DNA from: a phage | Strand: one strand, 5' to 3' | Assembly (NCBI GenBank): GCA_032986305.1 | Contig: GCA_032986305.1_3672.1 | Length of the DNA stretch: 64,000 bases | Shown here: positions 23,971 through 37,787 of the stretch, piece by piece | Position numbering within the stretch: position 1 is the first letter of the stretch | How the letters are laid out: each line of letters opens with the position of its first letter | The notes under the pieces: generated by a model | Database searches by the model: none | What the model was told of the DNA's origin: nothing | Seen by the model: only the letters and a program-made list of their open reading frames with translations | Position numbers and translations under genes: made by a program

Positions 23971-24020
23971 AGTATCTCCGATTACTCTATTCTACCACAT
24001 CTAATTAAGATTGGCAACAC

Positions 24021-24827
24021 TTAGATAAAACGCTTGAACATAGAAGGTGATGAGATTGATGGAATCACACAAGGAAGTGCTACCTCCTCTTTCTCCAGGA
24101 AATTAATTGCAGAAGCTACACAGTCAGCCCAGTCGTCTTTTCTGTTAAATGTTGATCTTTCCCCGTTGAATTTTTCAAGTTCAGTCAGAAATGCTTCCAG
24201 AGTATCAGGATGGAAACTGGATTTTACAATCCTAACCATTCCTTGTTGGGCAAGATTGGCAAAAGGTGAGAACCTTGTCAGTTTAGATTTGTTGGAAGGC
24301 ATTGGGTCTTCTTCAACCCTAAACCCTTCGGCGAGCAAGGATCTGGAGGATGTTAAGAACTCACTCTTACCTGCCTGACCGGGGTCCACAGAGAATACGA
24401 TTATACAATCATCACCATCAAACTGCGCCTGTTTCCTGATGATCACATCTCGTTCACCAGCCTTTTTACAGAACTTGCCTTCCAGACCTGTGGAATACCT
24501 CCCGTCATCCACGTTTTCAGGACAATAATCCCCTGACAGGTAATAAAAGCCGTCGCTATCTTTACTTACCTTAACACTGGCGGTAAAGTCAGGAAATTTA
24601 TTACCGGAAGTTCTGTCGGTTCCTGCCTTATCCCATGCCCTGCAAGATACTGATCCAAGGGGTACTCTATCGGCATCACGAAGGAAAGATCTTTGAAAAT
24701 AGTTTGCACCCTCAGGCTTTGCAAACCAGTTGCCATGAAGAAGCTGGGCTTTTTCAAGCTCGGGCAGACCTTCAAGAAAAGCAAGGTATTCTGGGTTGTC
24801 TCTCAAGCAGACAGGATTATCGAATCC
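24021..24827 (-). CDS. terminase large subunit, exon 2 (nuclease domain); 5' boundary approximate
   Basis: 261-aa ORF; continues the reading frame of exon 1 after removal of the intervening intron. Confidence 0.65.
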   Translation of the reverse strand, partial: GFDNPVCLRDNPEYLAFLEGLPELEKAQLLHGNWFAKPEGANYFQRSFLRDADRVPLGSVSCRAWDKAGTDRTSGNKFPDFTASVKVSKDSDGFYYLSGDYCPENVDDGRYSTGLEGKFCKKAGERDVIIRKQAQFDGDDCIIVFSVDPGQAGKSEFLTSSRSLLAEGFRVEEDPMPSNKSKLTRFSPFANLAQQGMVRIVKSSFHPDTLEAFLTELEKFNGERSTFNRKDDWADCVASAINFLEKEEVALPCVIPSISSPSMFKRFI

Positions 24828-25804
24828 TTATATTCAAAGGTGGTCGCAACACCACCTTCCGCACCTTTACGTGCTGCTGCATGTTACCATGCAGAGTAGA
24901 CTATATCACCACCCATTTCAGGGTGCTTCGCTTTTCGAGCGCCATAAGCTTGCGCCCTACTCCCTCTCGGGATAGTCGTTGAACTACATTACCAATCGTA
25001 ATTGTTTGAAATATAGGTGTAAGTCTTACGGTCTTTTATTCCTTTAACAACACTAAAACTTACTCCCCACTTCTTAGCTATTTTATTTACACACAAGACC
25101 TTATCACTAAGATCCTCGCAGATACCTATTATCTTGTGCTCACTTATCCGATTAGAGGTTGGCACTTTTCTAAAGTTAAACTCTTTAGAAATATCTGGGT
25201 ATACTGAGCCATTCTTTATACCACTTACAAGTGGTTGATTGACACCAAACATTTCACAAATGTCTTTTACCCTTGCGCCTTGCTCTAACAGCCTACATAT
25301 TTCAAGAGCAGTGGCATCATCCAGGGACCTGTATTTATTGACATAGTCCTTTTTAAGTCCCATTTCATGAGCGTGATGTGTGTTTTCCTCAGGCGTTGTC
25401 CACTCAAGGTTCCATGCGGCGTTATTCAACTTATTACCATCTAGGTGGTTTACTTGAGTTTTCACGCTGGGATTGTCATTATCAACAAAAGTCATAGCAA
25501 TCACTCTGTGAACGAGCACTTGGAACTTTTTACCGTCCTCGCACAAAGTTACCATAGCATAGCCAGTCTTTTTCTGCACATTAGGATGGAGGAATTTATT
25601 AGAATACAGACTGTAAATTCTGCCATCGTATGTAGCACAATAATGATTGTAGCCTAAAAAGCCTAAATTTTTCATTTCAAACATCTCCCTACTACAGGTT
25701 CGGAAGGGTAATTATAGCTGCTGATTGTCCGTTTAGCAATCGGATTTCCCAGCAATTAACGAAGTTATTCGACGTGCATTTCTGCACGAAGCCACTATCA
25801 TTTA
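24828..25804 (-). mobile_element. group I intron in terminase large subunit gene, carrying an HNH homing endonuclease ORF (boundaries +/- ~20 nt)
   Basis: R-like GTTCAACGACTATC (reverse of 24962-24975) and S-like GATATAGTCT (reverse of 24897-24906) core elements; 3' core nearly identical to the nrdD intron at 53500-53545; interrupts a single terminase reading frame. Confidence 0.65.
24989..25675 (-). CDS. HNH homing endonuclease (intron-encoded)
   Basis: motif ..VHRVIAMTFVDNDNPSVKTQVNHLDGNKLNNAAWNLEW.. (HNH_3-type); ORF lies inside the intron; stop 12 nt before the R element. Confidence 0.7.
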   Translation of the reverse strand: MKNLGFLGYNHYCATYDGRIYSLYSNKFLHPNVQKKTGYAMVTLCEDGKKFQVLVHRVIAMTFVDNDNPSVKTQVNHLDGNKLNNAAWNLEWTTPEENTHHAHEMGLKKDYVNKYRSLDDATALEICRLLEQGARVKDICEMFGVNQPLVSGIKNGSVYPDISKEFNFRKVPTSNRISEHKIIGICEDLSDKVLCVNKIAKKWGVSFSVVKGIKDRKTYTYISNNYDW

Positions 25805-26547
25805 ATGGTTGCGCCTATAAACGAGAATGACAACGGTCTTGGCTTGATCTCCACACCCAGTCCGTTAACCGTGGTGTATTTCTCTATCAACTCTTCTTTA
25901 GAGTCTCCCCAAATAAATTCACCGTCGCGTCGGATAAAATATCTTTTCTTACCGCATTTCTCCGGATCTGGATACCCTTCATCGTCCAACCACCATCTAA
26001 CCAGTTTGGCAAGCATGTGTTCTGAATCGGGGTTACAGCTGATAACCATTCTTGATGGATACTTTGACTGAGATCGCAGACGAGACATCAGATAGTCTAT
26101 CTGCTCCCATTCGAACTGCGTTCCCTCATCGAAGCAAACCATGGTGTACTCAAGCCCTTGATGGTTAAGCTTATCTTGTACATACTCCATGTGGCAGTAT
26201 TTTACAACAGCTCCCTTTTTGCTCCTATCCCACTTGCCAGTGTTCGGATCAAACCGTGGAAAAATGAACTTATGATCCTTCTCTCTGAACTTTGGCTTAA
26301 TGTTTTCAGGCAGATCACTATAAATAGCTACTGCTTTAGGCCATAGTCCACCCTCACCTTCCAACTGTGGGGTTGTTCTTCGGAACATAACCACAGAGCT
26401 GTGGGGGTCATCAATAATTTTAAGCGGCATCAACTGCAAGAGGAACGACTTGCCAGACCCTGCGGCACCGCCGATTACCAAAATATCTGCATCATTTTCG
26501 AGGATCATCTTCTGCTTTTCAGAACACGGTCCGTAAATCTTAGACAT
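25805..26547 (-). CDS. terminase large subunit, exon 1 (ATPase domain); 3' boundary approximate
   Basis: Walker A GGAAGSGKS near the N-terminus; ORF ends at a stop lying just inside the intron. Confidence 0.7.
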
Positions 26548-26834
26548 TAACCTCTCTCCTTTGGAAAAAGTGTTCTAATATAGTCTTGCAAAATGATCAA
26601 TTTAGCTCTATCATTGCTACAAGACAGATTATTATCCCTCATAATGCCAGAGTTCACTGCATCTGGCGCACCTTTCTTCAAAGGCATAGCTTTAGCAGGT
26701 GGTTTCATGGCACCTTCCGGGGGCTTAACAATCAACCTTCCTACATCTGGAGGGTCAATCTTGTATTCTTTCTCAACACTGGTTGCACACCCACATAATA
26801 ACAAGCACGCAATAAACAGTGTAGCAACTCTCAT
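26547..26834 (-). CDS. o-spanin-like outer-membrane lipoprotein
   Basis: signal peptide with L-C-G-C lipobox, Pro-rich periplasmic part, 95 aa; overlaps upstream gene by 4 nt. Confidence 0.45.
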   Translation of the reverse strand: MRVATLFIACLLLCGCATSVEKEYKIDPPDVGRLIVKPPEGAMKPPAKAMPLKKGAPDAVNSGIMRDNNLSCSNDRAKLIILQDYIRTLFPKERG

Positions 26835-27229
26835 CGATCCTCCTGATTGATACTCTCATTATAAATATCTATAAGCTGATCAGGAAGTGTTGACTTCTTA
26901 CCTTCAGGTGATTGGAGGTAGATAATCTGCTTTTCTCTACCTTCCCTCTCAGCCATATTTAATTTATCCTGCAGATCAGAAAGAGATTTTTCAAGGTTTT
27001 TAACCTCCTCTGCGTGGCCCATTTTAATTTTGTCGGCCTGCTTTTGTTGCTGATCAAGGATCCGTTCCCACTTTAACTCTGTTGCTGACACACCCTCTTG
27101 GTAGGCATCATTAAGCTTAGAGTTAAACCAATACACGGCCCCAAGATAAGCTGCACCTATAGCCGCTGCAAAAACTAAACCTTTTATGATCCCTCTATAC
27201 CTACTCAGCCATGTTAAACCTGAAATCAT
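26831..27229 (-). CDS. i-spanin-like protein
   Basis: N-terminal transmembrane helix followed by a charged coiled-coil-like region, 132 aa; paired with the lipoprotein gene. Confidence 0.45.
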   Translation of the reverse strand: MISGLTWLSRYRGIIKGLVFAAAIGAAYLGAVYWFNSKLNDAYQEGVSATELKWERILDQQQKQADKIKMGHAEEVKNLEKSLSDLQDKLNMAEREGREKQIIYLQSPEGKKSTLPDQLIDIYNESINQEDR

Positions 27230-27244
27230 TTTAAGGCTCCAGAA

Positions 27245-27278
27245 ACGAAAAAACCCCGCAGCTATACAGCTAACGGGG
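27245..27278 (-). terminator. intrinsic terminator between tRNA region and spanin genes
   Basis: CCCCG..CGGGG stem then TTTTTT on minus strand. Confidence 0.45.
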
Positions 27279-27334
27279 CGGGTTAAAATTGAGTAACCTA
27301 AATAGATCGAAACTAACTAAAAGGAGACTAATAC

Positions 27335-27603
27335 TTATCGAGGCACTCGGTGGATGATTCTAACAGTAACTGCATTTTCATTCATCAAGTATGCATCTAC
27401 ATCTCTGTAAATATAAAACTTCTGCTCACTATCAACAACACAAGCTACCGCCCCTTCAGAGTTGTCTTCAAAAAAGACCACCACTGCATCGCAGCTGAGT
27501 TCATGATATGACTCTCGAAGATTTACAGCCAGAGGATTGAAATCGTCACGAAAATCTACAGTATTTGTTGGATTTACACGCTCTACAATTTTAAGTGTAT
27601 ACA
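27335..27603 (-). CDS. hypothetical protein (89 aa; start moved to internal ATG)
   Basis: ORF track start overlaps tRNA-Pro; internal MYTLK start has AAGGAA RBS. Confidence 0.35.
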
Positions 27604-27649
27604 TTTTAAAGGTTCCTTTTGTGTGTATATGTTTAAAGTATAACTGAAA

Positions 27650-27726
27650 GTGGTCTCCACGGAGTGATTCGAACACTCGACCTCCTGATCCCAAATCAGG
27701 CGCTCTACCAAGCTGAGCTACGCGGA
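27650..27726 (-). tRNA. tRNA-Pro (anticodon UGG)
   Basis: hand-folded cloverleaf: acceptor CTCCGCG/CGTGGAG, T-loop TTCGAAT, anticodon loop TTTGGGA, CCA encoded. Confidence 0.8.
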
Positions 27727-27737
27727 GTATTTACTAT

Positions 27738-27812
27738 TTGGTGGCCCTGGGTGGAATTGAACCACCGTCTGGCGATTATGAGTCGCTTGCTTGAACCTTC
27801 CAGCTACAGGGC
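27738..27812 (-). tRNA. tRNA-Met (anticodon CAU; elongator or Ile-lysidine type)
   Basis: acceptor GGCCCTG/CAGGGCC, T-loop TTCAATT, anticodon loop CTCATAA, CCA encoded. Confidence 0.75.
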
Positions 27813-27813
27813 C

Positions 27814-27889
27814 TTGGTGCTGATGGCAGGACTTGAACCTGCAACCTATTGATTACAAATCAATTGCACTACCAATTGTGCTACATCAG
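27814..27889 (-). tRNA. tRNA-Thr (anticodon UGU)
   Basis: acceptor GCTGATG/CATCAGC, D-stem GCAC/GTGC, anticodon loop TTTGTAA, T-loop TTCAAGT, CCA encoded. Confidence 0.8.
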
Positions 27890-27894
27890 CAAAA

Positions 27895-27993
27895 AGGTGC
27901 TAGGCGGTGGAATCGAACCACCTATGTATTCAACGACTACCTCGTCTATTTTCAGGATTAAAAATCCTCGCCCTTGCCAAAGGGCTTACCTAG
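27895..27993 (-). tRNA. atypical tRNA-like gene, possibly tRNA-Lys (anticodon UUU) with ~30-nt extra region; may be a pseudo-tRNA
   Basis: perfect 7-bp acceptor pairing GCTAGGT/GCCTAGC, canonical T-arm GGTGG-TTCGATT-CCACC, D-stem GCCC/GGGC, 4-bp anticodon stem with loop TTTTTAA, but ~99 nt long and no CCA. Confidence 0.35.
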
Positions 27994-28091
27994 CTCAGTA
28001 TGTTGACCATGTTGCTAGTCGGCGATGACGACTGTAACATTTGATAATCCGGTTCTGCTTCCGGCTTTCGCTTAATTACAAGGTCAACAAT

Positions 28092-28182
28092 GTGGCGGAG
28101 AGTAATGGAATCGAACCATCATCGAGTCATCCTCAATGGGACGGTTTTCAAGACCGCTTGAGCACCATTGCTCCCTACCCTC
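28092..28182 (-). tRNA. tRNA-Ser (anticodon UGA), long variable arm
   Basis: acceptor GGAGGGT/ACTCTCC, anticodon loop CTTGAAA, extended variable arm, discriminator G, CCA encoded. Confidence 0.7.
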
Positions 28183-28189
28183 CTTTATA

Positions 28190-28218
28190 AATTATACTGA
28201 TAATGACACTGATTTTCG
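28190..28218 (-). promoter_or_regulatory. sigma70-like promoter upstream of tRNA-Ser
   Basis: minus strand TCGAAA-N17-TATAAT, -10 ending 7 nt before the tRNA 5' end. Confidence 0.4.
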
Positions 28219-28296
28219 AGCAGTTAGTGACTAGTATAAACGACGATAAATATCAATGCCATTATCTGTATTATTTACGCATCTAAAAATATAAAT

Positions 28297-28383
28297 TTGG
28301 TGGGGAGTGGTGGAGTCGAACCACCCGAGTCGCAATGACAATAGATTTACAGTCTACACCGCTACCTCTACGGGATAACTCCC
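28297..28383 (-). tRNA. tRNA-Tyr (anticodon GUA)
   Basis: acceptor GGGGAGT/ACTCCCC, anticodon loop CTGTAAA, long variable arm, T-loop TTCGACT, CCA encoded. Confidence 0.75.
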
Positions 28384-28387
28384 CAAT

Positions 28388-28462
28388 TTGGCACCCCGTA
28401 CTGGACTCGAACCAGTGTCAACGGCTTAGAAGGCCGCTGCTTTATCCACTAAGCTAACAGGG
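28388..28462 (-). tRNA. tRNA-Arg (anticodon UCU)
   Basis: anticodon stem-loop GCGGC-CTTCTAA-GCCGT, T-arm ACTGG-TTCGAGT-CCAGT, CCA encoded. Confidence 0.7.
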
Positions 28463-28559
28463 CACTGGGTGGCTTTCTTTTACACCTTAGCCGCCAGAAA
28501 AGGTGGGAGACCATGTTTACAATATTACACTGTTAAGCAAAGTTTGTCAAGAAAATATT

Positions 28560-28898
28560 TTAGCTATTGCTAACAGGCTGTATTTCTGTAGTAAATGGCA
28601 TAAAAGGTGCTGGTTTTTCAGCCTCTTCCACTACCATCTCTTCCTCTTCACCAAACATCTCATCATATTCTTCCTGCATTCGGTCTGCCTTATCAAGAAC
28701 ATACTCTGCAATGCTTTGACGAATATTTTGTTTGGTTTTCGGGTCCAACATCAGCTCTCTTAAAACTTTGTGAGCTTCTGGAACCATCGCTATAAAAGAT
28801 TCCTTCATATCAAGGATGTTCTTCTCTAGCTGAATGGCGTTGGACTCCTCTTTCAGAGGTCTGCCTCTACGGCGACGCTTTTTAGTTGTATCCGCCAT
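28560..28898 (-). CDS. hypothetical small basic/acidic protein with AT-hook-like KRRRRGRP motif
   Basis: start moved to MADTTKK.. with GGAGGA RBS; acidic C-terminal tail. Confidence 0.4.
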   Translation of the reverse strand: MADTTKKRRRRGRPLKEESNAIQLEKNILDMKESFIAMVPEAHKVLRELMLDPKTKQNIRQSIAEYVLDKADRMQEEYDEMFGEEEEMVVEEAEKPAPFMPFTTEIQPVSNS

Positions 28899-28904
28899 GT
28901 TTCC

Positions 28905-29200
28905 TCCATTATCACGTGATAGGTGGATTTTATCATAGCAAATACTGATTGTCAAGTTCGCCGCAGGGTGGTATTCCCTGCGACTTGTCCAGCGTCCTGG
29001 ACCAGCAAGACCCAACAAGTGGGTTACCAGAGGCCTATTACCCGCGCTTCGGCTCGACCTTGTTACAGGTTGGCTGGGGTCACATCGTCATGTGCTGGCT
29101 GCCCCTACCATTTTAAGTGTGGTGCACTATCAAGCCCTCTAAGGGGAACTCAGCCTTCTCCGAACCCTGTTTCAAAGCATCCAGAGATAAAGCCATCAAA
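28905..29200. ncRNA. GC-rich non-coding island, candidate structured RNA (strand and function unknown)
   Basis: GC content visibly above flanking DNA; hairpins CGCAGGG..CCCTGCG and GTCCAG-CGTC-CTGGAC; only an Arg-rich implausible ORF spans it. Confidence 0.25.
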
Positions 29201-29244
29201 TTCATCTTTAAATTGGATATTCATCATGATACACGAAAACAACC

Positions 29245-29487
29245 TCATTGTAAAGCACAAATAAATAAAACATACTTAATTTGTTTGTTATCAGGCTCAG
29301 GGTAGAAGTAGAAGATCTTGCTATCACCGATCTGAACACCACCATCCCAACAACATAGCCCATAACCTGTATTCATACAAGCTAAGTCGTTGGCAAAATC
29401 TATTGCATCATCCAGTGCACGAAATTCACCTTCATCTTCTAAATAATCCTCATTCATGGAACGAAAAACGAGCTTAACCTTAAACAT
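29245..29487 (-). CDS. hypothetical protein (80 aa)
   Basis: ORF only. Confidence 0.3.
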   Translation of the reverse strand: MFKVKLVFRSMNEDYLEDEGEFRALDDAIDFANDLACMNTGYGLCCWDGGVQIGDSKIFYFYPEPDNKQIKYVLFICALQ

Positions 29488-29563
29488 AGCATTACCTGTA
29501 GACCTCGTAAGTTAAAATTGCATCACATCATATTGCAGATCTTATCAGGTAACACTATTTTTG

Positions 29564-29773
29564 TCAACAGATTCCGGCCTTATCCTTCCTGTCTGCGTAT
29601 TCTTTAATCGCAACCTCATCTGCATTAGTGACCAGGTCTTCAAAGTAACTCTCAAGCTCCTCGTCAATGTCAGGAGACCAGCCCTTTTTCCTGTCAGTGT
29701 GAATCGCAGACTTGTTAAACTTAGTACAGTTCTTTGCTACCGGATTGTTCATTAAGCACCCCTCAGCGTTCAT
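29564..29773 (-). CDS. hypothetical protein (69 aa)
   Basis: ORF only. Confidence 0.3.
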   Translation of the reverse strand: MNAEGCLMNNPVAKNCTKFNKSAIHTDRKKGWSPDIDEELESYFEDLVTNADEVAIKEYADRKDKAGIC

Positions 29774-30341
29774 AGTAAATCTTATTTAACATTACCTCAT
29801 CCTTTGCAGAAAGGATATCTAGATATGCATCACCGAATCTACCTGCAACAACCTCTGCATGATACATCACTTCGTTAATATCGTCAAGAGGGATAACTGG
29901 ATGACCGTATCTCTCTGAGTATTGTCTCAGAGTGCGATGTAGGGAGTCATCATCATAGGCAGACTTTTTAATATCGCAAACACGACGAATAGCCTTGATG
30001 TCGAAAAACCCTGTACGATACCAACCAAGAAAAAGGTTTCGTGCAGTGTCAACATCTACATCAATACCATTAAGAACCTTATCTACAAGATAGCTGTCAT
30101 CCTTTGGACCAGCTTCCTTAGTGCGAATGTAGTTGCCATCTTTTCCAGGTGACATCTCCTTCTCATCACCAACCTGCATGCCATCATTTGGCGGTGTTAG
30201 CCACTTATCCGGATGCTTACGATCACGAGCGTTAGAATGATTACGCTGGAAACCAGGCTTCCACTTGAAAGTTTTCTCCATCTGTTCTTCATTCTGATAA
30301 CGTTTTGCAATCTTTTCACGGTCATCTTTGCGTGAACCCAT
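29763..30341 (-). CDS. hypothetical protein (192 aa)
   Basis: ORF with GAGGAGG RBS. Confidence 0.4.
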   Translation of the reverse strand: MGSRKDDREKIAKRYQNEEQMEKTFKWKPGFQRNHSNARDRKHPDKWLTPPNDGMQVGDEKEMSPGKDGNYIRTKEAGPKDDSYLVDKVLNGIDVDVDTARNLFLGWYRTGFFDIKAIRRVCDIKKSAYDDDSLHRTLRQYSERYGHPVIPLDDINEVMYHAEVVAGRFGDAYLDILSAKDEVMLNKIYYER

Positions 30342-30454
30342 AGCTGCCTCCTCTTCAAGTTATAGAAAAACTCACTGTATCACTTTGTAACGAGCTTTTC
30401 TATCAAACTGGTGCGATTGCATTACCTGGTATAGTTTATATAGCTGTGGAGCGA

Positions 30455-30710
30455 TTTAGGGGCCTTCTTGTCAGTTTCCACACATAAACTTCATCCAAGC
30501 TCGCGCGGGAGGCTCTCAACCGACTCCTTACGGCGCTGGCAAGCTTTCGTCGGTGGTCCACATCAGTGCTCGGCCTTTGGCCTGCGCTATCGCTTCGCTC
30601 CCACACATGTTAACAGACCTGCATGTATGCACTTCTGTTATTGTGTGCACCAAGGAGGCCCGGCATCTCGCCCCTCGTAGGCGAGTGCCAATGAAGGGCC
30701 GACACTACCT
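30455..30710. ncRNA. GC-rich non-coding island, candidate structured RNA (strand and function unknown)
   Basis: ~250 bp GC-rich block between AT-rich DNA; hairpins CTCGCC..GGCGAG and GGCC-TTT-GGCC; GGGGCCTTC at one end nearly complementary to GAAGGGCC at the other; only a low-complexity ORF. Confidence 0.25.
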
Positions 30711-30843
30711 ATAGTAAGTAATAATTTTAAAACATGGTACTTAGGATCTAGTATATTCTACATAAGTTAAGTATATGTACTTAGTACCATAAGTACTAGA
30801 TCTTTTATTTTTTATTATTTAGTTATTTTAGTTATATTCTTTA

Positions 30844-30927
30844 TGTGTCCGTATCACGGACAGTTAGTGTCCGTATTACGGACAGATGTGTCCGCGTGAC
30901 GGACAGTAGTGTCCGTATCACGGACAG
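30844..30927. repeat. four tandem ~21-22 bp palindromic repeats GTGTCCGT-N3-5-ACGGACAG (operator or iteron array)
   Basis: copies centred at about 30854, 30876, 30898, 30918; each is a 7-bp inverted repeat; 20-22 bp periodicity; AT-rich palindrome-rich DNA lies next to it at 30720-30840. Confidence 0.6.
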
Positions 30928-31001
30928 TTACTGACCTCTGTTCCAGAGCGAACATAAAACATACGAATCCTTATAGTACAGATATTTAAGTTTTTACTGG
31001 T

Positions 31002-31352
31002 CTAACCAGTTGTTGACATTCGAATAACCTCTTCTGGTGGCAAAACTTTGGAAAATGTACATCTTTTACCTCTCCCTTGTGTGGATATTTCAACCACTCC
31101 TGCACATTCTAAAGTTTTAACACACGCTGCTGCTTTTGTTTTCTTTATCCCAACATCTGCTGCAATTTTCCTTGTGCTGGGTGTGAAGCGTGAATTTCCT
31201 CCAAGCTTATACCAGTTGTGCAGGTAGCAGTATACGATCTTGTCATATAAGTCAAGAACAACAACCTCCCCAGTTGTGTCATTCAAAACTTTTGACATAG
31301 ACAGTATTTCAAGGGGGACTTTAAGATATAGCAGCTTATCCCCATCTTTCAT
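31002..31352 (-). CDS. small helix-turn-helix-like DNA-binding protein (tentative)
   Basis: 116 aa; segment ..STRKIAADVGIKKTKAAACVKTLECAGVVEI.. resembles an HTH; gene ends ~75 bp before the palindromic repeat array. Confidence 0.35.
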   Translation of the reverse strand: MKDGDKLLYLKVPLEILSMSKVLNDTTGEVVVLDLYDKIVYCYLHNWYKLGGNSRFTPSTRKIAADVGIKKTKAAACVKTLECAGVVEISTQGRGKRCTFSKVLPPEEVIRMSTTG

Positions 31353-31399
31353 ATCTCCTGATTCTCCTTGTGTGGCAATTTTCTTTAAAATAGCAGGGA

Positions 31400-31954
31400 T
31401 TACTCCCCGCTGTCAATAGCAAGACTCATTGCAATACGGTATGCCTCTTCTAATGGTAAGAGTCTCCCCCACACATCCCAACCGACATCAAACTGCCTGC
31501 CAAACAACTGCTGTGTGGTTCCGTGAGCATGACCGAACAGTTGGACTGATCCGTGAGGCTTTCTGTTCCACTTTGCAAACTGGTAATGGCTCATACAGAT
31601 CAAATTCTTGTTGTGGCGAAGCTCGTAATAATCTACAACCTCATGACCGAACTCTTTCATAATTCTGACAGTCGTCCTTGTGTCATGGTTACCACGAACA
31701 AGAATAATATGTCCGTTCAACATATTTAGAACATCTGGGAGCAATTTGTTGATATTCTTATCATTAGTGCACGCAATATCTCCCAAGTGAAACACAGTGT
31801 CTGCAGGTGACACAACAGAGTTCCACTTGGTGATGATTCCCGCATTCATACTGTCAAGATTGTGATCATACTGAGATCTGTGTTTTTGACATGAATCGAA
31901 CTCCATGACCCGCTGGTGGAGAAAGTGTGTGTCGCTTGTTACAAAGTATTTCAT
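31400..31954 (-). CDS. calcineurin-like metallophosphoesterase (start at internal MKYFVTSDTHF)
   Basis: motifs D-x-H (SDTHF), GDIA, GNHD, GHAH in canonical order. Confidence 0.6.
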   Translation of the reverse strand: MKYFVTSDTHFLHQRVMEFDSCQKHRSQYDHNLDSMNAGIITKWNSVVSPADTVFHLGDIACTNDKNINKLLPDVLNMLNGHIILVRGNHDTRTTVRIMKEFGHEVVDYYELRHNKNLICMSHYQFAKWNRKPHGSVQLFGHAHGTTQQLFGRQFDVGWDVWGRLLPLEEAYRIAMSLAIDSGE

Positions 31955-31961
31955 ACATTCC

Positions 31962-32372
31962 TCATTTAAGTTTAATGCAGTTTTTAAGCTGGCGTTCCAT
32001 ACGATCCACAACCCTGTCTGGAACATCATGAATGCTTTTATTACCATGGCGGTTTTCAACCACGATCACGGTATAACTATACCCATGACTGATCGCCATG
32101 TCAATATATTCTTGCACATATTTTTCTTTTGTAAACGTATTACTTACCACGATACGGTCGTATCCCATACGCATCATATCTTCTACGTTATCTTTGCACC
32201 ATTTTGCTGCAAGTGTTACTTTACTTGCATCCCAGTTATAATTTCCATCATCGTCGTACCAGAACATGTCGTTCTCAAAATGTGGATACAGACCGTCTAA
32301 AGATAGCGCATTTGCCAGTGTTGATTTGCCAGACCCTGGCAGACCACGCACGATATATAGCATTTTAGACAT
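31962..32372 (-). CDS. P-loop polynucleotide kinase-like protein (T4 Pnk kinase-domain-like)
   Basis: Walker A ..IVRGLPGSGKST.. near N-terminus; start MSKML with GGAGGA RBS; adjacent to phosphatase and divergent from RNA ligase. Confidence 0.55.
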   Translation of the reverse strand: MSKMLYIVRGLPGSGKSTLANALSLDGLYPHFENDMFWYDDDGNYNWDASKVTLAAKWCKDNVEDMMRMGYDRIVVSNTFTKEKYVQEYIDMAISHGYSYTVIVVENRHGNKSIHDVPDRVVDRMERQLKNCIKLK

Positions 32373-32400
32373 AGTAATCCTCCGTTTTAATTTCAACGAT

Positions 32401-32429
32401 AGTATACCTGACTGTTTTGTTAATTTCAA
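32401..32429 (-). promoter_or_regulatory. sigma70-like promoter for kinase-phosphatase operon
   Basis: minus strand TTGAAA-N17-TATACT. Confidence 0.45.
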
Positions 32430-32432
32430 GTG

Positions 32433-32461
32433 TTGACACTAGGTTATTTGTGTGGCAGGAT
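32433..32461 (+). promoter_or_regulatory. candidate early promoter (good -35 TTGACA, weak -10)
   Basis: TTGACA at 32433-32438, back to back with the divergent minus-strand -35. Confidence 0.3.
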
Positions 32462-32472
32462 AGGCTGACAAA

Positions 32473-33408
32473 ATGACAAATGAGGAACGTATGATGAAGT
32501 ATTTTAATGCAGATGACCTAGTAGACAAAGGTCTTGTAACCAGTCGGTATTATCCAGATCTTGGATTAAAGATCTATAAATATGCCAGAAAAGTATTCTA
32601 CAACAATCTGTGGCATTTGTCTCCGCGTTTACTGGAGTGCCGAGGTATTGTTGTTGGCAATGAGGGGAATGTTGTGGCATGGCCTTTCACAAAAGTATTC
32701 AACTTAGGAGAAAACTCCACCAACCTACCGGACAGTAAACTTGTTACTGCGGTAGAGAAAAAGAACGGATTCCTTGGTGTGGTATCATCTCATAAAGGTG
32801 AACTATTGTTCTCAACAACCGGATCTCTTGATTCTCCATATTGTAACCTCACAAAGGAAACCATCCAAGAGCAATGTGGTAATTTAGATCTTATCAAGAA
32901 GGTTATGGGCAATGAAAACATGACATTCATGTTTGAAATTTGTCACCCTTCAGATCCGCATATTGTTCAGGAAGATCATGGCGCATATTTGATAGGTTGC
33001 AGATATAATGATTCTGGAATAATGCTGCCAGAAGCAGCTTTAGATGGGATTGCCAAATACCTTGGCGCAAAACGTCCTCACACTGTGCGTGAAATTCCGT
33101 TCAGCTATGCAAAAGAATTGGCTGCAGAAACAAGAGGTGAAGGGTATATGATTCGTAAGCCTTACTACCCTTATGATCTGCAGCTGAAGATCAAGTCTCC
33201 ATACTATCTGGCACGGAAGGCCGTAATGAGGGGTAAAGCTTGGAAGATTTGGGATGATGATATCTTTAAACGTGTTGACGAAGAGTTTTACGGCATGGTA
33301 AACTTCATTCGTAGCAATTACACAGAAGATGTGTGGAACTGCCTACTGGAGCAGGAACGCAGGGAGATACTCGACCACTATTTCCACAACGAGGACTATA
33401 TGCAATGA
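32473..33408 (+). CDS. RNA ligase, T4 Rnl1-like (alternative start at 32491)
   Basis: recalled T4 Rnl1 motifs: ECRGI, FNLGEN, nucleotidyltransferase motif I KKNG (K-x-[DN]-G), EGYMIRK..LKIKS. Confidence 0.6.
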   Translation: MTNEERMMKYFNADDLVDKGLVTSRYYPDLGLKIYKYARKVFYNNLWHLSPRLLECRGIVVGNEGNVVAWPFTKVFNLGENSTNLPDSKLVTAVEKKNGFLGVVSSHKGELLFSTTGSLDSPYCNLTKETIQEQCGNLDLIKKVMGNENMTFMFEICHPSDPHIVQEDHGAYLIGCRYNDSGIMLPEAALDGIAKYLGAKRPHTVREIPFSYAKELAAETRGEGYMIRKPYYPYDLQLKIKSPYYLARKAVMRGKAWKIWDDDIFKRVDEEFYGMVNFIRSNYTEDVWNCLLEQERREILDHYFHNEDYMQ

Positions 33409-33755
33409 AGAAGTTGATTGTGTGGCTGGATGATTTGAGAGATCCGTCAAATTATGGACTCCCAGACGCTGTTTGGCTGAAGAATTCCTCCGAGTTTATG
33501 GATTTTATTAACGATAATGGAAAGCTCTACAGACGCGTTTCTGAGTGGCATATGGACAACGACTTAGGAGAAGTATTCGAAGGATATGATTGCCTATCCA
33601 TGTTGGAGGAAAAATTTGTATTCGGTAAGCCTCCCGTGGTTGACAACGTGAAGATTTTCGTACATACTTCTAATCCATCAGCGGCTCGTAAATTCATGCT
33701 TGCAGCTGACTCGTTTAAAAAGTTTGGAATAGAGATTAAACAAAACATCTACTGA
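33405..33755 (+). CDS. hypothetical protein, possibly flavodoxin-like/receiver-like fold
   Basis: 116 aa; KKLIVWLDD start and later DxD and VHTSNP segments loosely resemble a receiver-type domain; ATGA overlap with ligase stop. Confidence 0.3.
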   Translation: MKKLIVWLDDLRDPSNYGLPDAVWLKNSSEFMDFINDNGKLYRRVSEWHMDNDLGEVFEGYDCLSMLEEKFVFGKPPVVDNVKIFVHTSNPSAARKFMLAADSFKKFGIEIKQNIY

Positions 33756-33763
33756 GGACACTT

Positions 33764-34525
33764 ATGCGACGACTGATTATTATCTCCGGTGCTGGTTTGA
33801 GCGCTGAATCTGGTATTCCCACTTTCCGATCTGGTAGCACTGCAATGTGGGAGAATTTCAGCATCGATGAGGTGTGCAACATCCACACCTTTGCCAAGAA
33901 CTACTATAAGGTGCATGACTTTTACAATGCACGTCGTGTAGCTCTGGGCAGTGTTGATCCTAACCTTGCACATCTTCGGATCGCTGAGTGGTATTCCCGC
34001 TGGTCTGGTCGTGTGATCAACCTTACCACCAATGTAGATGATTTGCTGGAGCGTGCTGGTGTAAAACATGAAGATATTTTACATGTCCACGGGTATTTGC
34101 CTGAAATCACCTACGAAGATGCTGAAGGTAATGATGTAATTAAAAATATCGGATACACGGAGGTAGATACAGGTAAGTATACCTGGGTTAAGCCCAATGT
34201 AGTGTTCTTCGGTGAGGTTGCTCCTAAGTATACAGACATGTATGACCTGTTGACATCTCTCACAAGCAATGATATGGTGATCCTGGTAGGTTGTTCTAAC
34301 ACAGTTATTAATTTTAACTGGGAATTGTTTCCTGCTACTTGTAAAGGCACAAAACTGCTGATTGTAAACAAGTATGATTCGCAGAGTGCAGATGGAAGTG
34401 GCATTTCACGTAGCGACCTTTATCAATATGAGGATCGCGGGATCCCTGTATGGTTTAACGGTGCTGTTGACGCTTTCTCTGATAAAGTATTTATTGAAAC
34501 TGTAGAAAACTTTATGGAACTTTAA
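33764..34525 (+). CDS. SIR2-family (sirtuin-like) NAD-dependent enzyme
   Basis: motifs GAGLSAESGIPTFR, TNVDDLLERAG, catalytic-type HG, VFFGE; no obvious zinc-ribbon cysteines. Confidence 0.65.
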   Translation: MRRLIIISGAGLSAESGIPTFRSGSTAMWENFSIDEVCNIHTFAKNYYKVHDFYNARRVALGSVDPNLAHLRIAEWYSRWSGRVINLTTNVDDLLERAGVKHEDILHVHGYLPEITYEDAEGNDVIKNIGYTEVDTGKYTWVKPNVVFFGEVAPKYTDMYDLLTSLTSNDMVILVGCSNTVINFNWELFPATCKGTKLLIVNKYDSQSADGSGISRSDLYQYEDRGIPVWFNGAVDAFSDKVFIETVENFMEL

Positions 34526-34538
34526 AAGGAGACCTTTA

Positions 34539-35252
34539 ATGCTGAATACTAAACTGATCGACAACCTGGAAAAACTGTCTCAGCCTGAAAACTACCTTTG
34601 GTCTGCCAACTGGGTGGAAAACTGGAACCGTGTGGCAGCTAAGGTGAAAAAATCATACACACCATTCGAATTACAGCTTAGCTTCATTGAGGAAGAGTTC
34701 AATGAAGTTTTGGAAGAGCTGGAGAAAGGTGATGGTGGAGATCACTTGCTAAAAGAGGCCTGCGATCTTCATGTTGTCACAAGTTATGCCGCTTATCTTG
34801 TTAATGACAATCACGAAAAGTGGTCAAACCTGTTTGATAATCCACGAGGTATTAAGTTCAAGATTGGTGAGTTCTATGATACACTGATCGCTGCGAAAAA
34901 CACCTCTAAGCAAAGAGCGTCTGCTTACCGCTTAGCAGAGTTGTCAACAGCTTTGCTGTTCCAGCTTCGCGGAGATGTGTGCGGGATGATGCGTAAGGTT
35001 CTCAAATCGAATGACAGCAAGTTTGCACGGGTCAACCATCTACGGTATTCACACGGTGCCAGTGCAGATATGCCTGCTGAACAACTCATCGAGTTGGAGA
35101 TTAAAGATCTTGAGCGACGCTTTGATGGTCGATATGAAGGTTTTGTTGCTAAGGAAGAATTCTACAACGGTAATAAAGTTATCATATTCCTTGACAGTAA
35201 AGGTAAGATCATGAAGCCTTCAAGCTTCAAGGATGTAACAGGGTATATTTAA
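34539..35252 (+). CDS. hypothetical protein, possibly MazG/HisE-like nucleotide pyrophosphohydrolase domain
   Basis: N-terminal EExxE-type acidic helix pattern (..FIEEEFNEVLEELEKG..); weak. Confidence 0.3.
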   Translation: MLNTKLIDNLEKLSQPENYLWSANWVENWNRVAAKVKKSYTPFELQLSFIEEEFNEVLEELEKGDGGDHLLKEACDLHVVTSYAAYLVNDNHEKWSNLFDNPRGIKFKIGEFYDTLIAAKNTSKQRASAYRLAELSTALLFQLRGDVCGMMRKVLKSNDSKFARVNHLRYSHGASADMPAEQLIELEIKDLERRFDGRYEGFVAKEEFYNGNKVIIFLDSKGKIMKPSSFKDVTGYI

Positions 35253-35259
35253 CAACATA

Positions 35260-35285
35260 GCCGGGATCACCCGGCTTTACTTGTT
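35260..35285 (+). terminator. intrinsic terminator
   Basis: GCCGGG-ATCA-CCCGGC hairpin followed by TTTACTTGTT. Confidence 0.45.
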
Positions 35286-35624
35286 GTGGAAAGTATGCAA
35301 GTGAGGCAGATAGTTATGTACAAGCACTCTAGAGATCTTGAAAACGATGCTGTGTTTGGGGATCAGATGAAAGAGTTGGTTAAACTCATAGGCAGGATAG
35401 AGGATAAGTTTGACACTAAGATCTACATCGACAGCAAAGTATTCAACCACAAAATATGGACAAATCTGTGTGTTGGACTACATGGAGATAAAGATGTTGT
35501 AAATTTAGTTGTAATTAAGTTCATAGTGTGGCAGAATAAGACTATACGTTATTCCGATCCACACTTACTTGTTTATCCTATAAAAGACCTACTACAGAAA
35601 GAGGACTGCAATGCCGTTATTTAA
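35286..35624 (+). CDS. hypothetical protein (112 aa)
   Basis: ORF only. Confidence 0.3.
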   Translation: MESMQVRQIVMYKHSRDLENDAVFGDQMKELVKLIGRIEDKFDTKIYIDSKVFNHKIWTNLCVGLHGDKDVVNLVVIKFIVWQNKTIRYSDPHLLVYPIKDLLQKEDCNAVI

Positions 35625-35880
35625 TCTTGCTAAACCTGTAGAAGCCCACCAGTTTGACGGAAGCTCTTCATCAGTATCTGATCTGCAACGGTGGATTGAT
35701 ACAGGTGTGTTTACATCGTCACCTGTTCGGACCAGAGATCTTCGTCGCATGTGTGAGCTTGTCGAGCCTTTTGGTAACCTTGTCTTGTACCAAGGAGATT
35801 GGCTAGTTGACTTTATGGGAGACTGGTTGGTAATGAGTAAAGAAGAGATGTTTAAAATTTTTAAGGAAGAGGCCGAGTAA
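35611..35880 (+). CDS. hypothetical protein (89 aa)
   Basis: ORF, overlaps neighbours. Confidence 0.3.
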   Translation: MPLFNLAKPVEAHQFDGSSSSVSDLQRWIDTGVFTSSPVRTRDLRRMCELVEPFGNLVLYQGDWLVDFMGDWLVMSKEEMFKIFKEEAE

Positions 35881-37163
35881 TGCATCAAATCAAAACAACA
35901 CTGTACGCACTGAACAAAGATGGCAGCTACCAACAGTGGAAAGTATTCACTGATGGCGAAAAGGTTATCGTAGAGTTTGGCAAGCTTGACGGTAAATTGC
36001 AGTACAAAGAGACGGTATGCACACCTAAGAACGTAGGTCGTGCCAATGAGACTACAGCTGAGCAACAGGCCGAGCTTGAGGCTATCAGCAAGTGGGAAAA
36101 ACAAGTCCGTCTGGGGTATGTTGAAAACATGGAAGATTGCGAGCAGGGTGTTGATCTTTTACCCATGCTGGTGCATGACTACCTGAAGCGTGGCAAGGCA
36201 CTTAAACTACCTTGCTGGATCTTGCGTAAGTTAGATGGCCTTCGTCTGCTTGTTGTTTTCCAAAATGGTGAGCCTAAATTTATTTCCCGTGGTAATAAGT
36301 CCTACCCTATTCAAGGAAAGCTTTTAGAGCAACTTCGTTCTTTCCATTCTACCACTGGGATTAAACAACTTGATGGGGAACTATACATTCATGGTCTTCC
36401 TTTGCAGAAAATAGTGTCTCTTGCTAAACGGTGGCGAACACAGGAAGAGATTCAGGCCGAGATCGATAAAGACTATGAGGCAGATAAAAAACGCCGTCAT
36501 ACCGCAATTAAGGCAGGCTTATCAACATACAAAAACTTCAACAAGGTAGATATTCCTGTCGATGTTGAGCCTGTTCGTGATGATTTGCGTTACGGTGGGT
36601 ACTGTAGCTACGATCTTGAGTATCACATTTTTGATATTCCTAGCGACAAGGTGTGGTGGGATCCAGAAACAGAGTCTGGACGCTGCAAGGATCTTATGGA
36701 TGCAGAGGATACCGTTACCACTCTGATGCTTGACCATATCAAGGTTGTTGACGCAGAGCTTGCGTACACAGTTGATCATTGCGAAGAATCTGTTGGTATA
36801 TTCATGTCCGAAGGATATGAAGGTACTATCATGCGTAATTTCTGCGGTAAATATGAGTATGGTCAGAGAACATCTGAAGCATTGAAATGGAAAAAGTTCA
36901 ACGACGCAGAGGTGAAAGTTATTGACGTTGAGAAAGATAAGAATGATGAAGGTGTTCTTATCTGTGTTGACAAGGAAGGTGTTGTTGTTAAAATGAAGAT
37001 GAAAGGCACGCACGAGGAGCGTAGCTATGACAGGATGCAGGAAATGATCGGCAAGTTTGTCACCTTCAAATATCAAGCAAGGACAGAAGACAACAACTAC
37101 CAATTCCCTGTCGGTATCTGCGTCCGAAATGTTAACCCAGACACTTGGGAGGTGCTGGAATAA
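35880..37163 (+). CDS. ATP-dependent DNA ligase
   Basis: motif I K-L-D-G-L-R (..ILRKLDGLRLLVV..), motif IV/V-like EGTIMR and LKWKKF, OB-fold-like C-terminus. Confidence 0.65.
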   Translation: MHQIKTTLYALNKDGSYQQWKVFTDGEKVIVEFGKLDGKLQYKETVCTPKNVGRANETTAEQQAELEAISKWEKQVRLGYVENMEDCEQGVDLLPMLVHDYLKRGKALKLPCWILRKLDGLRLLVVFQNGEPKFISRGNKSYPIQGKLLEQLRSFHSTTGIKQLDGELYIHGLPLQKIVSLAKRWRTQEEIQAEIDKDYEADKKRRHTAIKAGLSTYKNFNKVDIPVDVEPVRDDLRYGGYCSYDLEYHIFDIPSDKVWWDPETESGRCKDLMDAEDTVTTLMLDHIKVVDAELAYTVDHCEESVGIFMSEGYEGTIMRNFCGKYEYGQRTSEALKWKKFNDAEVKVIDVEKDKNDEGVLICVDKEGVVVKMKMKGTHEERSYDRMQEMIGKFVTFKYQARTEDNNYQFPVGICVRNVNPDTWEVLE

Positions 37164-37316
37164 TTTAGGTATGCTTAGTAGATAACGGTAGCCAATTGAA
37201 TAAGTGTTTTCAATTTGCACCTACATATACCCTGATGTATGCACTGTGCAACCTAGCCACACCACACAGTGGTGCTGATCGGGGCCTCGTTATGAGTGAA
37301 CTGGAGAGTATGAAAA

Positions 37317-37787
37317 ATGAAACTTGATAAAAATGTTCAACGAAAAGCTTTCTTGGATATGATCGCATATTCGGAAGGCACAGATAATGGTAGACAACCA
37401 ACTAAGGATCGGGGATACGATGTCATAGTTGGTGGCAAGCTGTTTAGCGATTACAGCAAGCATCCAGGTGTGTACGTTAAGCTAAATGCTAAACTTACCT
37501 CCTCCGCTGCTGGGCGTTACCAGGTTTTGGAGAAGTTTGCTAAACACTACATGGAACAGTTAGGATTGCCAGATTTTGGCCCTGCCAGTCAGGACAAGAT
37601 TGCGTTGCAACTGATCCGTGAGTGCAAGGCTCTCTCCGACATTGACGAAGGGCGTATCCACGAGGCTATCCATAAATGCCGTTCCCGCTGGGCTTCGTTA
37701 CCTGGTGCTGGATATGGTCAGCATGAACAGAAGATCGAGAAGTTGATCGAGGTGTTTAAAAAGGCAGGCGGTGTTGTCCTTGATTGA
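37317..37787 (+). CDS. endolysin, lambda R-like lytic transglycosylase
   Basis: close match to recalled lambda R sequence along most of its length (QRKAFLDM..SEGTDNGRQ..GYDVIVGG..DYS.HP..AGRYQ..WASLPGAGYGQ). Confidence 0.85.
   Translation: MKLDKNVQRKAFLDMIAYSEGTDNGRQPTKDRGYDVIVGGKLFSDYSKHPGVYVKLNAKLTSSAAGRYQVLEKFAKHYMEQLGLPDFGPASQDKIALQLIRECKALSDIDEGRIHEAIHKCRSRWASLPGAGYGQHEQKIEKLIEVFKKAGGVVLD

Follow-up and report, generated by a model that had tools for sequence, protein, structure and literature searches.

A sirtuin gene within a probable RNA end-repair cluster of an rV5-like Escherichia coli phage

What use could a lytic phage have for a sirtuin? The question is raised by a gene at positions 33764-34525 (+ strand) of a 64,000-nucleotide stretch of phage DNA (the window; contig GCA_032986305.1_3672.1 of GenBank assembly GCA_032986305.1), where it lies between the genes for a small receiver-like protein, here called cREC (33405-33755), and a MazG-like protein (34539-35252). 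An initial annotation, made from the letters of the window, had singled out these three genes as a block and had offered manipulation of nicotinamide adenine dinucleotide (NAD), ADP-ribosylation of host or phage targets, and counter-defence as candidate functions. Here, we examine the block by means of profile and structure searches, residue-level alignments and counts of genomic contexts. We will argue that the gene cluster to which it belongs very probably serves RNA repair. We further read the block as the distal portion of a phage cluster for healing and sealing RNA ends, directed as counter-defence against host or competitor ribonucleases, and give this reading close to an even chance. 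The more specific assignment of the sirtuin as a remover of RNA 2'-phosphates is drawn by analogy and is offered tentatively.

It should be stated at the outset that the genes, their neighbourhood and the hypothesis are already known from print or annotation for this phage group, with the chemistry standing as a prediction. Iyer, Burroughs, Anantharaman and Aravind (Viruses 2022, 14:1977; PMC9503650, section 3.7.3) describe the neighbourhood as their configuration 2, 'Escherichia phage V5 / Proteus phage Mydo', which contains a sirtuin, a T4-like tRNA/RNA ligase, cREC, a nucleotide kinase, a MazG pyrophosphatase and sometimes a calcineurin-like phosphoesterase, and they predict a KptA/Tpt1-like removal of RNA 2'-phosphates by the sirtuin. 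The gene set in the window is identical, the phage group is the same (V5 being the prototype), and nothing essential differs. In related GenBank records, the middle gene is labelled 'Sir2 (NAD-dependent deacetylase)' and the third 'nucleotide pyrophosphohydrolase', and the first gene has in recent records received the name 'cyclic-phosphate processing receiver domain-containing protein'. The block is thus not a new lead. What is added here, besides independent support for the gene context, are the operon boundaries, the residue-level checks, the context counts, and the findings that the MazG-like gene tracks a DNA ligase and that the sirtuin is split from the cluster in some lineages.

The source is a Vequintavirus, that is, an rV5-like E. 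coli myophage. The segment 33300-35300 is 99.7% identical to Escherichia phage JES2013, and 121 phage records match it with at least 80% identity, all except one with at least 90%. It is also 100% identical to two unannotated GenBank records, MG065646/7, which bear the names 'Campylobacter phage D1' and 'D#'; this E. coli Vequintavirus sequence recurs in about 25 'Campylobacter phage' records, whose host label looks wrong. The three open reading frames are found on the + strand exactly where they had been placed, with products of 116 (cREC), 253 (sirtuin) and 237 (MazG-like) amino acids (aa), and each start is preceded at 6-9 nt by a ribosome-binding site (GAGGA or AAGGAG). Judged from the sequence, they are real genes and not chance reading frames, since relatives are found in many phage records (976 for the sirtuin, 349 for cREC).

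Judged likewise from the sequence, the natural unit is larger, namely a four-gene operon in which an RNA ligase, cREC, the sirtuin and the MazG-like protein are encoded in one transcription unit. This follows from the ATGA overlap between the ligase stop and the cREC start, the short gaps of 8 nt (cREC to sirtuin) and 13 nt (sirtuin to MazG-like), and the terminator after the fourth gene. The latter is a hairpin at 35259-35276 (+), 7 nt past the MazG-like stop, with a 7-bp stem containing 6 G-C pairs (AGCCGGG-ATCA-CCCGGCT) and a T-rich tail. Terminator-like sites were not enriched in the scan; the hairpin at 35259 is nonetheless strong and is independently annotated, phage Murica having a terminator at the matching place. 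On the other side of a 100-bp gap, a divergent pair on the - strand encodes a P-loop kinase (31962-32372) and a metallophosphoesterase (31400-31954), and all six cluster genes fall within 31400-35252. In sequence, all six proteins retain their catalytic residues. The three genes first singled out are thus not a unit by themselves: the ligase is coupled to them upstream, and elsewhere the MazG-like gene stays with a DNA ligase while the sirtuin is absent or some 30 kb away. A self-contained three-gene system was rejected on these grounds.

We begin with the enzymes that give the cluster its character. The first gene of the operon runs from 32473 or 32494 to 33408 (+), the start at 32494 having the better ribosome-binding site, and encodes an Rnl1-family ATP-dependent RNA ligase (Pfam RNA_lig_T4_1, PF09511; 55.2 bits with a cut-off of 28.3, 1.1e-14). 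In a search with the profile of its family, T4 RNA ligase 1 (2c5u) comes up at 1.5e-25 and K96 falls on the T4 motif-I lysine; the invariant residues are K96, G99, E155, the EG pair (E223, G224) and the lysines of KxK (K239, K241). The protein is divergent and shorter (311 aa), and lies below the cut-off of the T4 RnlA equivalog TIGR02308 (35.9 vs 242 bits). The P-loop kinase, which starts with the ATG at 32372 and has GGAGG 6 nt upstream, is probably a polynucleotide 5'-OH kinase, being matched by Pfam AAA_33 (8e-10) and by phrog_505, 'polynucleotide kinase' (7.5e-10). With its family profile, the best solved relatives are the kinase domain of Clostridium thermocellum Pnkp (4gp6, 2.8e-6), then Pnkp1 (4xrp) and T4 PNK (1ly1/1ltq). 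For the ligase and the kinase alike, the single sequences gave no solved relative, and the matches came only with the family profiles.

The third enzyme, the calcineurin-like metallophosphoesterase, is a candidate 2',3'-cyclic or 3'-phosphate end-healing enzyme. It is matched by Pfam Metallophos/Metallophos_2 (E ~4e-6) and phrog_547 (5e-52), its closest solved relative is aq_1665 (1xm7, 5.9e-22), and the metal ligands D8, H10, D59, N89, H90, H142 and H144 are invariant in 13 homologues.

The receiver-like look of the small protein encoded between the ligase and the sirtuin (33405-33755, +), which the initial annotation had described as loose, turns out to have a definite basis, as the protein belongs to the cREC family (PF20274, 55.1 bits with a cut-off of 27, 1.3e-14; phrog_1479, 2.5e-35). 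The receiver-like active-site set D9-D10, D51-N52-D53, T88-S89 and K96 is kept in 20 homologues, and the family profile found no solved relative by sequence. The gene is translationally coupled to that of the RNA ligase, and there is no histidine kinase nearby, nor in the other loci that were seeded with cREC. The cREC domain was defined in a 2021 paper on jumbo phages (PMC7824862). The protein would be a metal-independent cyclic phosphodiesterase, a function that is a prediction, the family being experimentally uncharacterised according to its describers (PMC9503650).

Together, these genes point to repair of RNA ends. NAD-dependent RNA-end repair is the reading we favour for the locus, because an Rnl1 ligase is coupled upstream of the block, a kinase and a metallophosphoesterase are encoded divergently, and a tRNA array lies 3 kb away. 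The counter-defence idea of the initial annotation is in this sense kept, in the form of RNA-end repair against RNA-cutting toxins, whereas its other proposals, general manipulation of NAD and ADP-ribosylation of host proteins, are possible but less supported.

We now come to the sirtuin itself, for which the first question is what kind of sirtuin it is. That the middle protein is SIR2-like is borne out. Pfam SIR2 (PF02146) matches with 98.2 bits (cut-off 24, E=7e-28) over profile positions 1-178 of 180, and the nearest solved sequences are E. coli CobB (1s5p, 3e-21 with phmmer) and then SIRT5. In the AlphaFold2 (AF2) model, which has a predicted local distance difference test score of 87.7, the fold is of the same kind: the top 50 PDB matches found by Foldseek are all sirtuins, with CobB first (template-modelling score, TM, 0.73-0.83; 27% identity), followed by SIRT5 and Sir2Af1. 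An alignment of the clade (23 members, 49-93% identity) has G9, A10, G11 and S13 (GAGxS), F21-R22, T89-N90-V91-D92, the catalytic H109-G110, F148, F149 and E151 invariant in 23/23, and G150 conserved in at least 90% of the members. T89-N90-V91-D92 carries T where the canonical motif has Q, and in the KPNVVFFGE segment the KPxV-FF-E signature is invariant and the other positions are slightly variable. Y54 and R57 are likewise invariant (n=23) and are aligned with FYNARR, the anion-binding motif of CobB, as would suit an anionic substrate. The YxxR pair of CobB and SIRT5 binds the carboxylate of succinyl- or malonyl-lysine, and the titles of the SIRT5 structures among the Foldseek matches are consistent with this role.

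It is at this point that the strongest rival explanation comes in, and it is a serious one. The sirtuin could be an ordinary NAD+-dependent lysine deacylase, that is, a CobB/SIRT5-like desuccinylase or deacetylase acting on host or phage proteins such as the translation apparatus, ligases or metabolic enzymes, in which case its place among RNA-repair genes would be incidental or due to shared expression timing. Both the sequence and the structure matches just given favour it, as does the invariance of the full catalytic set (H109, N90, D92, the FGE loop and the class-III pair Y54/R57). However, the protein falls below the cut-off of every CobB equivalog of NCBIfam. With the equivalogs NF040867, NF001755 and NF001752 and the subfamily model NF001753, the scores are 122.6 vs 243, 104 vs 320, 93 vs 318 and 72 vs 221, and membership among the CobB orthologues was dropped as a claim, every equivalog score being far too low. 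Moreover, the segment equivalent to the zinc ribbon (residues 111-142) contains 0-1 Cys in 23/23 clade members and hence does not form a four-Cys ribbon, while the AF2 model still has beta-strands there. To our knowledge, the zinc-binding Cys are conserved in almost all characterised deacylase sirtuins, and their absence across the clade thus speaks against an ordinary deacylase.

The distribution of the clade is also relevant here. In addition to the 976 phage records, 949 homologues were found in a large protein collection, and a search through 185,579 species genomes, bounded by the patterns that it used, gave a single locus, on a phage-like contig. The clade appears therefore to be essentially confined to phages. 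With low equivalog scores, no zinc-ribbon Cys and a phage-only clade, the enzyme is not an ordinary CobB, and we describe it as a class-III-like sirtuin with no zinc site. In comparison with CobB and SIRT5, it shares the fold, GAGxS, FR, the N and D, the catalytic His, FGE and the YxxR pair, but differs in its identity of only 24-27%, the missing zinc Cys, TNVD in place of QNID, the restriction to phages and the RNA-repair context. All in all, we consider the deacylase explanation rather unlikely.

A second alternative, which goes back to the initial annotation, is that the enzyme acts on small molecules, either as an NADase that remodels the NAD pool or as a destroyer of NAD-derived immune signals, in an anti-Thoeris or anti-CBASS-like manner. 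The SIR2 domains of defence systems are indeed NADases (PMC9503650, section 3.3.2), and links to NAMPT and NADAR in some phages tie the clade to NAD metabolism. The protein, however, does not resemble the defence-type SIR2 models: PADLOC defence models gave no family at E<=0.01, and the match to Pfam SIR2_2 is not significant (13.2 bits with a cut-off of 24.5, E=0.097). A defence-type or NADase SIR2 was rejected as the assignment of the protein on these two results, which agree with the earlier expectation that a phage sirtuin would be something other than a host-type NAD-depleting defence protein. With ThsA, DSR1/2, SIR2-HerA and the SIR2-pAgo partners, the phage protein has in common the SIR2 Rossmann core and the lack of a zinc ribbon; it differs from them in being encoded by a lytic phage, in being a small single domain, in having no sensor or effector partners (no HerA, TIR, pAgo or SLOG among its neighbours), and in being nearest to class III deacylases. 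Furthermore, NAD depletion would be of no obvious gain to a phage, no NAD-salvage genes are annotated in the stretch of the JES2013 record that was inspected (positions 33,382-133,381 of 136,910), and the substrate-binding small domain and the YxxR pocket, which are typical of sirtuins acting on macromolecules, are kept. The small-molecule scenario is accordingly regarded as highly improbable.

What, then, would the sirtuin do in RNA end repair? In the mechanism that we consider, the damage to be repaired would be a tRNA or other RNA cut to give 2',3'-cyclic phosphate and 5'-OH ends. The kinase would phosphorylate the 5'-OH, cREC and/or the metallophosphoesterase would open the 2',3'-cyclic phosphate, and the Rnl1-type ligase would seal the break. 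The sirtuin would then spend NAD+ on the leftover 2'-phosphate, at an end or at the junction, by moving ADP-ribose onto the phosphate with release of nicotinamide, as is the case for the unrelated Tpt1/KptA. The ADP-ribose cyclic-phosphate by-product would finally be cleared by cREC, the phosphoesterase or the MazG-like enzyme.

The chemistry of Tpt1 and Trl1 in the fungal and plant pathway has been described (PMC11417386, PMC10946426), and the likeness to it lies in the proposed logic, namely that a kinase and an enzyme opening cyclic phosphates are encoded together with an Rnl1-family ligase and an enzyme that consumes NAD+. There is no homology, however: Tpt1 has an ART-type (ADP-ribosyltransferase) fold and the phosphodiesterase of Trl1 is a 2H enzyme, and a sirtuin and cREC would take their places here. 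The phage protein does not show homology to the ART-like KptA/Tpt1 and is a sirtuin by sequence and fold. The annotation of the JES2013 stretch mentioned above lists no gene for a KptA/Tpt1, 2H, macro or Nudix protein. This, together with the anion pocket formed by Y54 and R57, is compatible with removal of 2'-phosphates by the sirtuin, neither observation being decisive. The broader statement, that this zinc-less sirtuin of class-III descent acts on RNA and not on proteins, be it by 2'-phosphate removal or by ADP-ribosylation of terminal phosphates, is one we hold as doubtful.

The cluster can also be compared with the phage T4 Pnkp and Rnl1 pair and with bacterial Pnkp/Hen1. Alike are the Rnl1-family ligase, the kinase resembling those of Pnkp and T4 PNK, and the presumed repair of cut tRNA, and a metallophosphoesterase is present, as in bacterial Pnkp. 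In the phage, on the other hand, the parts are separate genes, there is no HAD phosphatase or Hen1 methyltransferase, and the sirtuin, cREC and the MazG-like protein are added.

The genomic contexts of the clade provide a further view of the association. We collected 61 unique sirtuin-clade genes from IMG/VR with flanks of up to 10 kb on each side (loci denoted L below) and scanned the flanks with profiles. In 43/61 cases, the sirtuin lies within ~3 kb of a gene for RNA-end processing, which belongs to one of two unrelated kinds. The first kind is that of the window, with an RNA ligase near 13 of the sirtuins (at 1.3-3.1 kb), a kinase near 13 (0.4-2.2 kb) and cREC near nine (0.36-5.7 kb). The contexts are those of Vequintavirus- and Mydovirus-like phages, with varying gene order (in L038, for example, the kinase is between cREC and the sirtuin, and a DNA ligase follows directly), and the 13 ligases include an Rnl1-type enzyme encoded 1.2 kb upstream of the sirtuin in a 608-kb jumbo phage (L074). 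The second kind is found in 29/61 cases, which are T5-like, and consists of a HAD_SAK_2 'Swiss-army-knife RNA repair' phosphatase gene -19 to +460 bp downstream (2.4 kb in one outlying case); it never coincides with ligase, cREC or kinase genes. The T5-type (SP15) version with HAD has also been described, as has a jumbo-phage version with 2H, Nudix, cREC and PIN (PMC9503650). The sirtuin is thus repeatedly linked to enzymes of RNA-end processing, in at least two non-homologous forms, and more loosely to the MazG-like gene.

Neither of the two contexts is seen for the remaining 18/61 genes, which include sirtuins beside NAMPT (L071, L108), NADAR (L015) and a deoxyribosyltransferase-like gene (L073). 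In the T4-like contigs L071 (8057-9493) and L108 (6086-7528), the sirtuin is immediately downstream of the NAMPT gene; the NAMPT of L071 was confirmed by the Pfam scan, and that of L108, together with a putative NADAR gene a little further upstream (4664-5158), was read from translated open reading frames. Such a NAMPT would let the phage recycle the nicotinamide that the sirtuin releases. In Phapecoctavirus-like genomes, the sirtuin is ~33 kb from a cluster of cREC, phosphoesterase, ligase, kinase, DNA ligase and MazG genes; in ESCO5 (NC_047776 / KX664695), the positions are about 17.5 kb for the sirtuin and about 51.6 kb for cREC. The Phapecoctavirus-like loci in the sample include L045, L100 and L085, and no RNA ligase or kinase was detected in the clusters of L085, L086, L100 and L104.

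These counts bear on the deacylase explanation in both directions. A gene present in ~976 phage records, many of them from T5-like phages without a phage RNA ligase nearby, could well be a deacylase, and NAMPT as a neighbour fits any enzyme that consumes NAD and releases nicotinamide. By contrast, the proximity of 43/61 genes to RNA-end-processing genes of two unrelated kinds is hard to explain for a general deacylase.

It is important to set out the points that weigh against RNA repair with the sirtuin as its NAD-dependent step. The enzyme is closest in sequence and fold to true protein deacylases, CobB and SIRT5, and retains every residue that deacylation needs, including the YxxR pair. The need for a 2'-phosphate remover is only putative, since the kinase, the metallophosphoesterase and Rnl1 could repair RNA by the T4/Pnkp route without an NAD-dependent step. 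As regards the contexts, 42/61 clade genes lack all of ligase, cREC and kinase over a distance of 10 kb, the T5-like phages have the sirtuin but no phage RNA ligase in its vicinity, and a good part of the observed synteny is among related Vequintavirinae-like phages and may in part reflect shared ancestry. Also, the MazG-like gene is linked more tightly to a DNA ligase than to the sirtuin. Finally, our search of the literature turned up two papers of comparative genomics alone (PMC9503650 and PMC7824862), and no experiments on phage sirtuins or cREC.

Another option considered is that the sirtuin is a macromolecular ADP-ribosyltransferase, which would cap 5'- or 3'-phosphate ends of RNA or DNA, or modify a host defence or translation protein, with cREC, the phosphoesterase or the MazG-like enzyme trimming or reversing the modification. 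Tpt1 can cap RNA and DNA phosphate ends with ADP-ribose in vitro, and some sirtuins (class M, SIRT4/6) are ADP-ribosyltransferases, which lends the idea some weight. Elsewhere in the clade, the neighbours are NADAR (L015, L108) and a nucleoside deoxyribosyltransferase-like domain (L073). Reviews, including PMC9503650, treat sirtuins as convergent with ARTs, and cREC is predicted to process ADP-ribose derivatives (PMC9503650, PMC7824862). On the other hand, neither a macro domain nor any other known reversal enzyme is encoded nearby in this phage, there is no target that could be named, and both the conserved YxxR pocket and the catalytic His belong to deacylase-type chemistry. This option is considered improbable.

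We finally turn to the last gene of the operon (34539-35252, +), whose product is an all-alpha nucleoside triphosphate pyrophosphohydrolase of the MazG/HisE/dimeric-dUTPase superfamily with a C-terminal beta-hairpin extension. The MazG/HisE-like character, previously suspected from an acidic helix, holds up: the metal-binding motif EXXE(12-28)EXXD is present on the helical bundle, and out of 15 family members, ten match PRA-PH (best 3.9e-7) and five MazG. The protein itself stays under the Pfam cut-offs (PRA-PH, 13.5 bits vs 21.3), and it differs from MazG, HisE and dimeric dUTPases in the additional hairpin, GRYxG...GKIMKPxTF, which is conserved in its family. The family is a small one of phages: a library of 1.8 billion proteins yielded 167 representatives at E<=1e-3. 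No PDB sequence match was obtained even at E<=10, and a fold search against BFVD returned mostly unnamed viral proteins. One entry there, UniProt A0A7H0XDZ2 from Escherichia phage vb_EcoM_bov22_2, is 98% identical to the protein and is labelled 'Sir2-like protein', a label that appears to be shifted by one gene.

Downstream of the terminator on the same strand are two small open reading frames with no Pfam family, at 35286-35624 (phrog_7684) and 35611-35880 (phrog_14585), and an ATP-dependent DNA ligase at 35880-37163 (Pfam DNA_ligase_A_M and OB_2; phrog_114). In Mydovirus-like, Phapecoctavirus-like and other phages, the small frames and the DNA ligase stay with the phosphoesterase and MazG-like genes in a shuffled order, and the DNA ligase is the most constant neighbour of the MazG-like gene. 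In five loci (L075-L078 and L081), the two are adjacent even though sirtuin, cREC and RNA ligase genes are all missing within 10 kb; the MazG-like gene is beside a DNA ligase in L084-L087 and L093 as well. This constant adjacency hints at a ligase-related role for the MazG-like enzyme, for example in clearing adenylylated ends, or at a role in the nucleotide pool.

An alternative is that the MazG-like enzyme is functionally independent of the sirtuin, as a nucleotide-pool or ligase-associated enzyme such as a dUTPase or deoxynucleoside triphosphate house-cleaner or an App-end hydrolase acting after abortive ligation, and that it is merely the last gene of the operon in Vequintaviruses. There are three points to the contrary. 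The gene is only 13 nt from that of the sirtuin in this operon, with a terminator in common, MazG is listed as a recurrent member of sirtuin neighbourhoods (Iyer et al. 2022, PMC9503650), and in the jumbo-phage versions the corresponding position is taken by a Nudix pyrophosphatase, suggesting that the pathway includes a pyrophosphatase step. We regard such independence as quite possible, at a little less than an even chance.

Some observations on the surroundings should be added. The 100-bp divergent intergenic region (32373-32472) presumably holds the promoters of both transcription units, and it is the point at which the strand and the GC skew of the genome switch between leftward structural genes and rightward DNA-metabolism genes. 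A TTGACA hexamer is present at 32433-32438 (+) and promoter-like sites at 32429-32401 (-); a scan for sigma-70 promoters gave 20 sites, vs 15.1 ± 3.7 expected in shuffled sequence, which is no enrichment, and no promoter is claimed. The only structured RNAs that Rfam found in 24000-37500 are tRNAs. The tRNA array 3 kb to the left of the cluster, at 27651-28463 (-), comprises seven genes according to ARAGORN (Pro, Met, Thr, Ser, Tyr, Arg and one odd call). The odd one is a 99-nt 'tRNA-???' with a 4-base anticodon at 27896-27994, which is annotated in Murica as 'tRNA-OTHER Asp|Gly' and omitted in JES2013; it is under the Rfam tRNA gathering score, as is tRNA-Ser (28093-28183). Further to the left, the terminase large subunit (~24411-26841, -) is annotated as two coding sequences that are split by an endonuclease VII gene (~25607-26086), which suggests a homing-endonuclease insertion or an intron-like split; in the scan starting at 24000, no Rfam intron family reached its gathering score.

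The value of the locus does not lie in a new object, as none is added, but in a well-defined and experimentally tractable target, an enzyme of 253 aa. The idea being already published as a prediction, the novelty would be in its demonstration. If it is true, rV5-like phages run a yeast-type, Trl1/Tpt1-like tRNA repair from non-homologous parts, in which cREC replaces the 2H cyclic phosphodiesterase and the sirtuin replaces Tpt1, and this would be a clear case of a whole repair pathway replaced non-homologously. A nucleic-acid substrate would, moreover, be demonstrated for a sirtuin for the first time, and sirtuin chemistry would be extended from protein lysines to RNA phosphates. Around 1,000 sequenced phages of Escherichia, Salmonella, Klebsiella and Vibrio carry the sirtuin, many of them candidates for phage therapy, and the proposed repair would help to explain the resistance of phages to defences that cut tRNA and other RNA.

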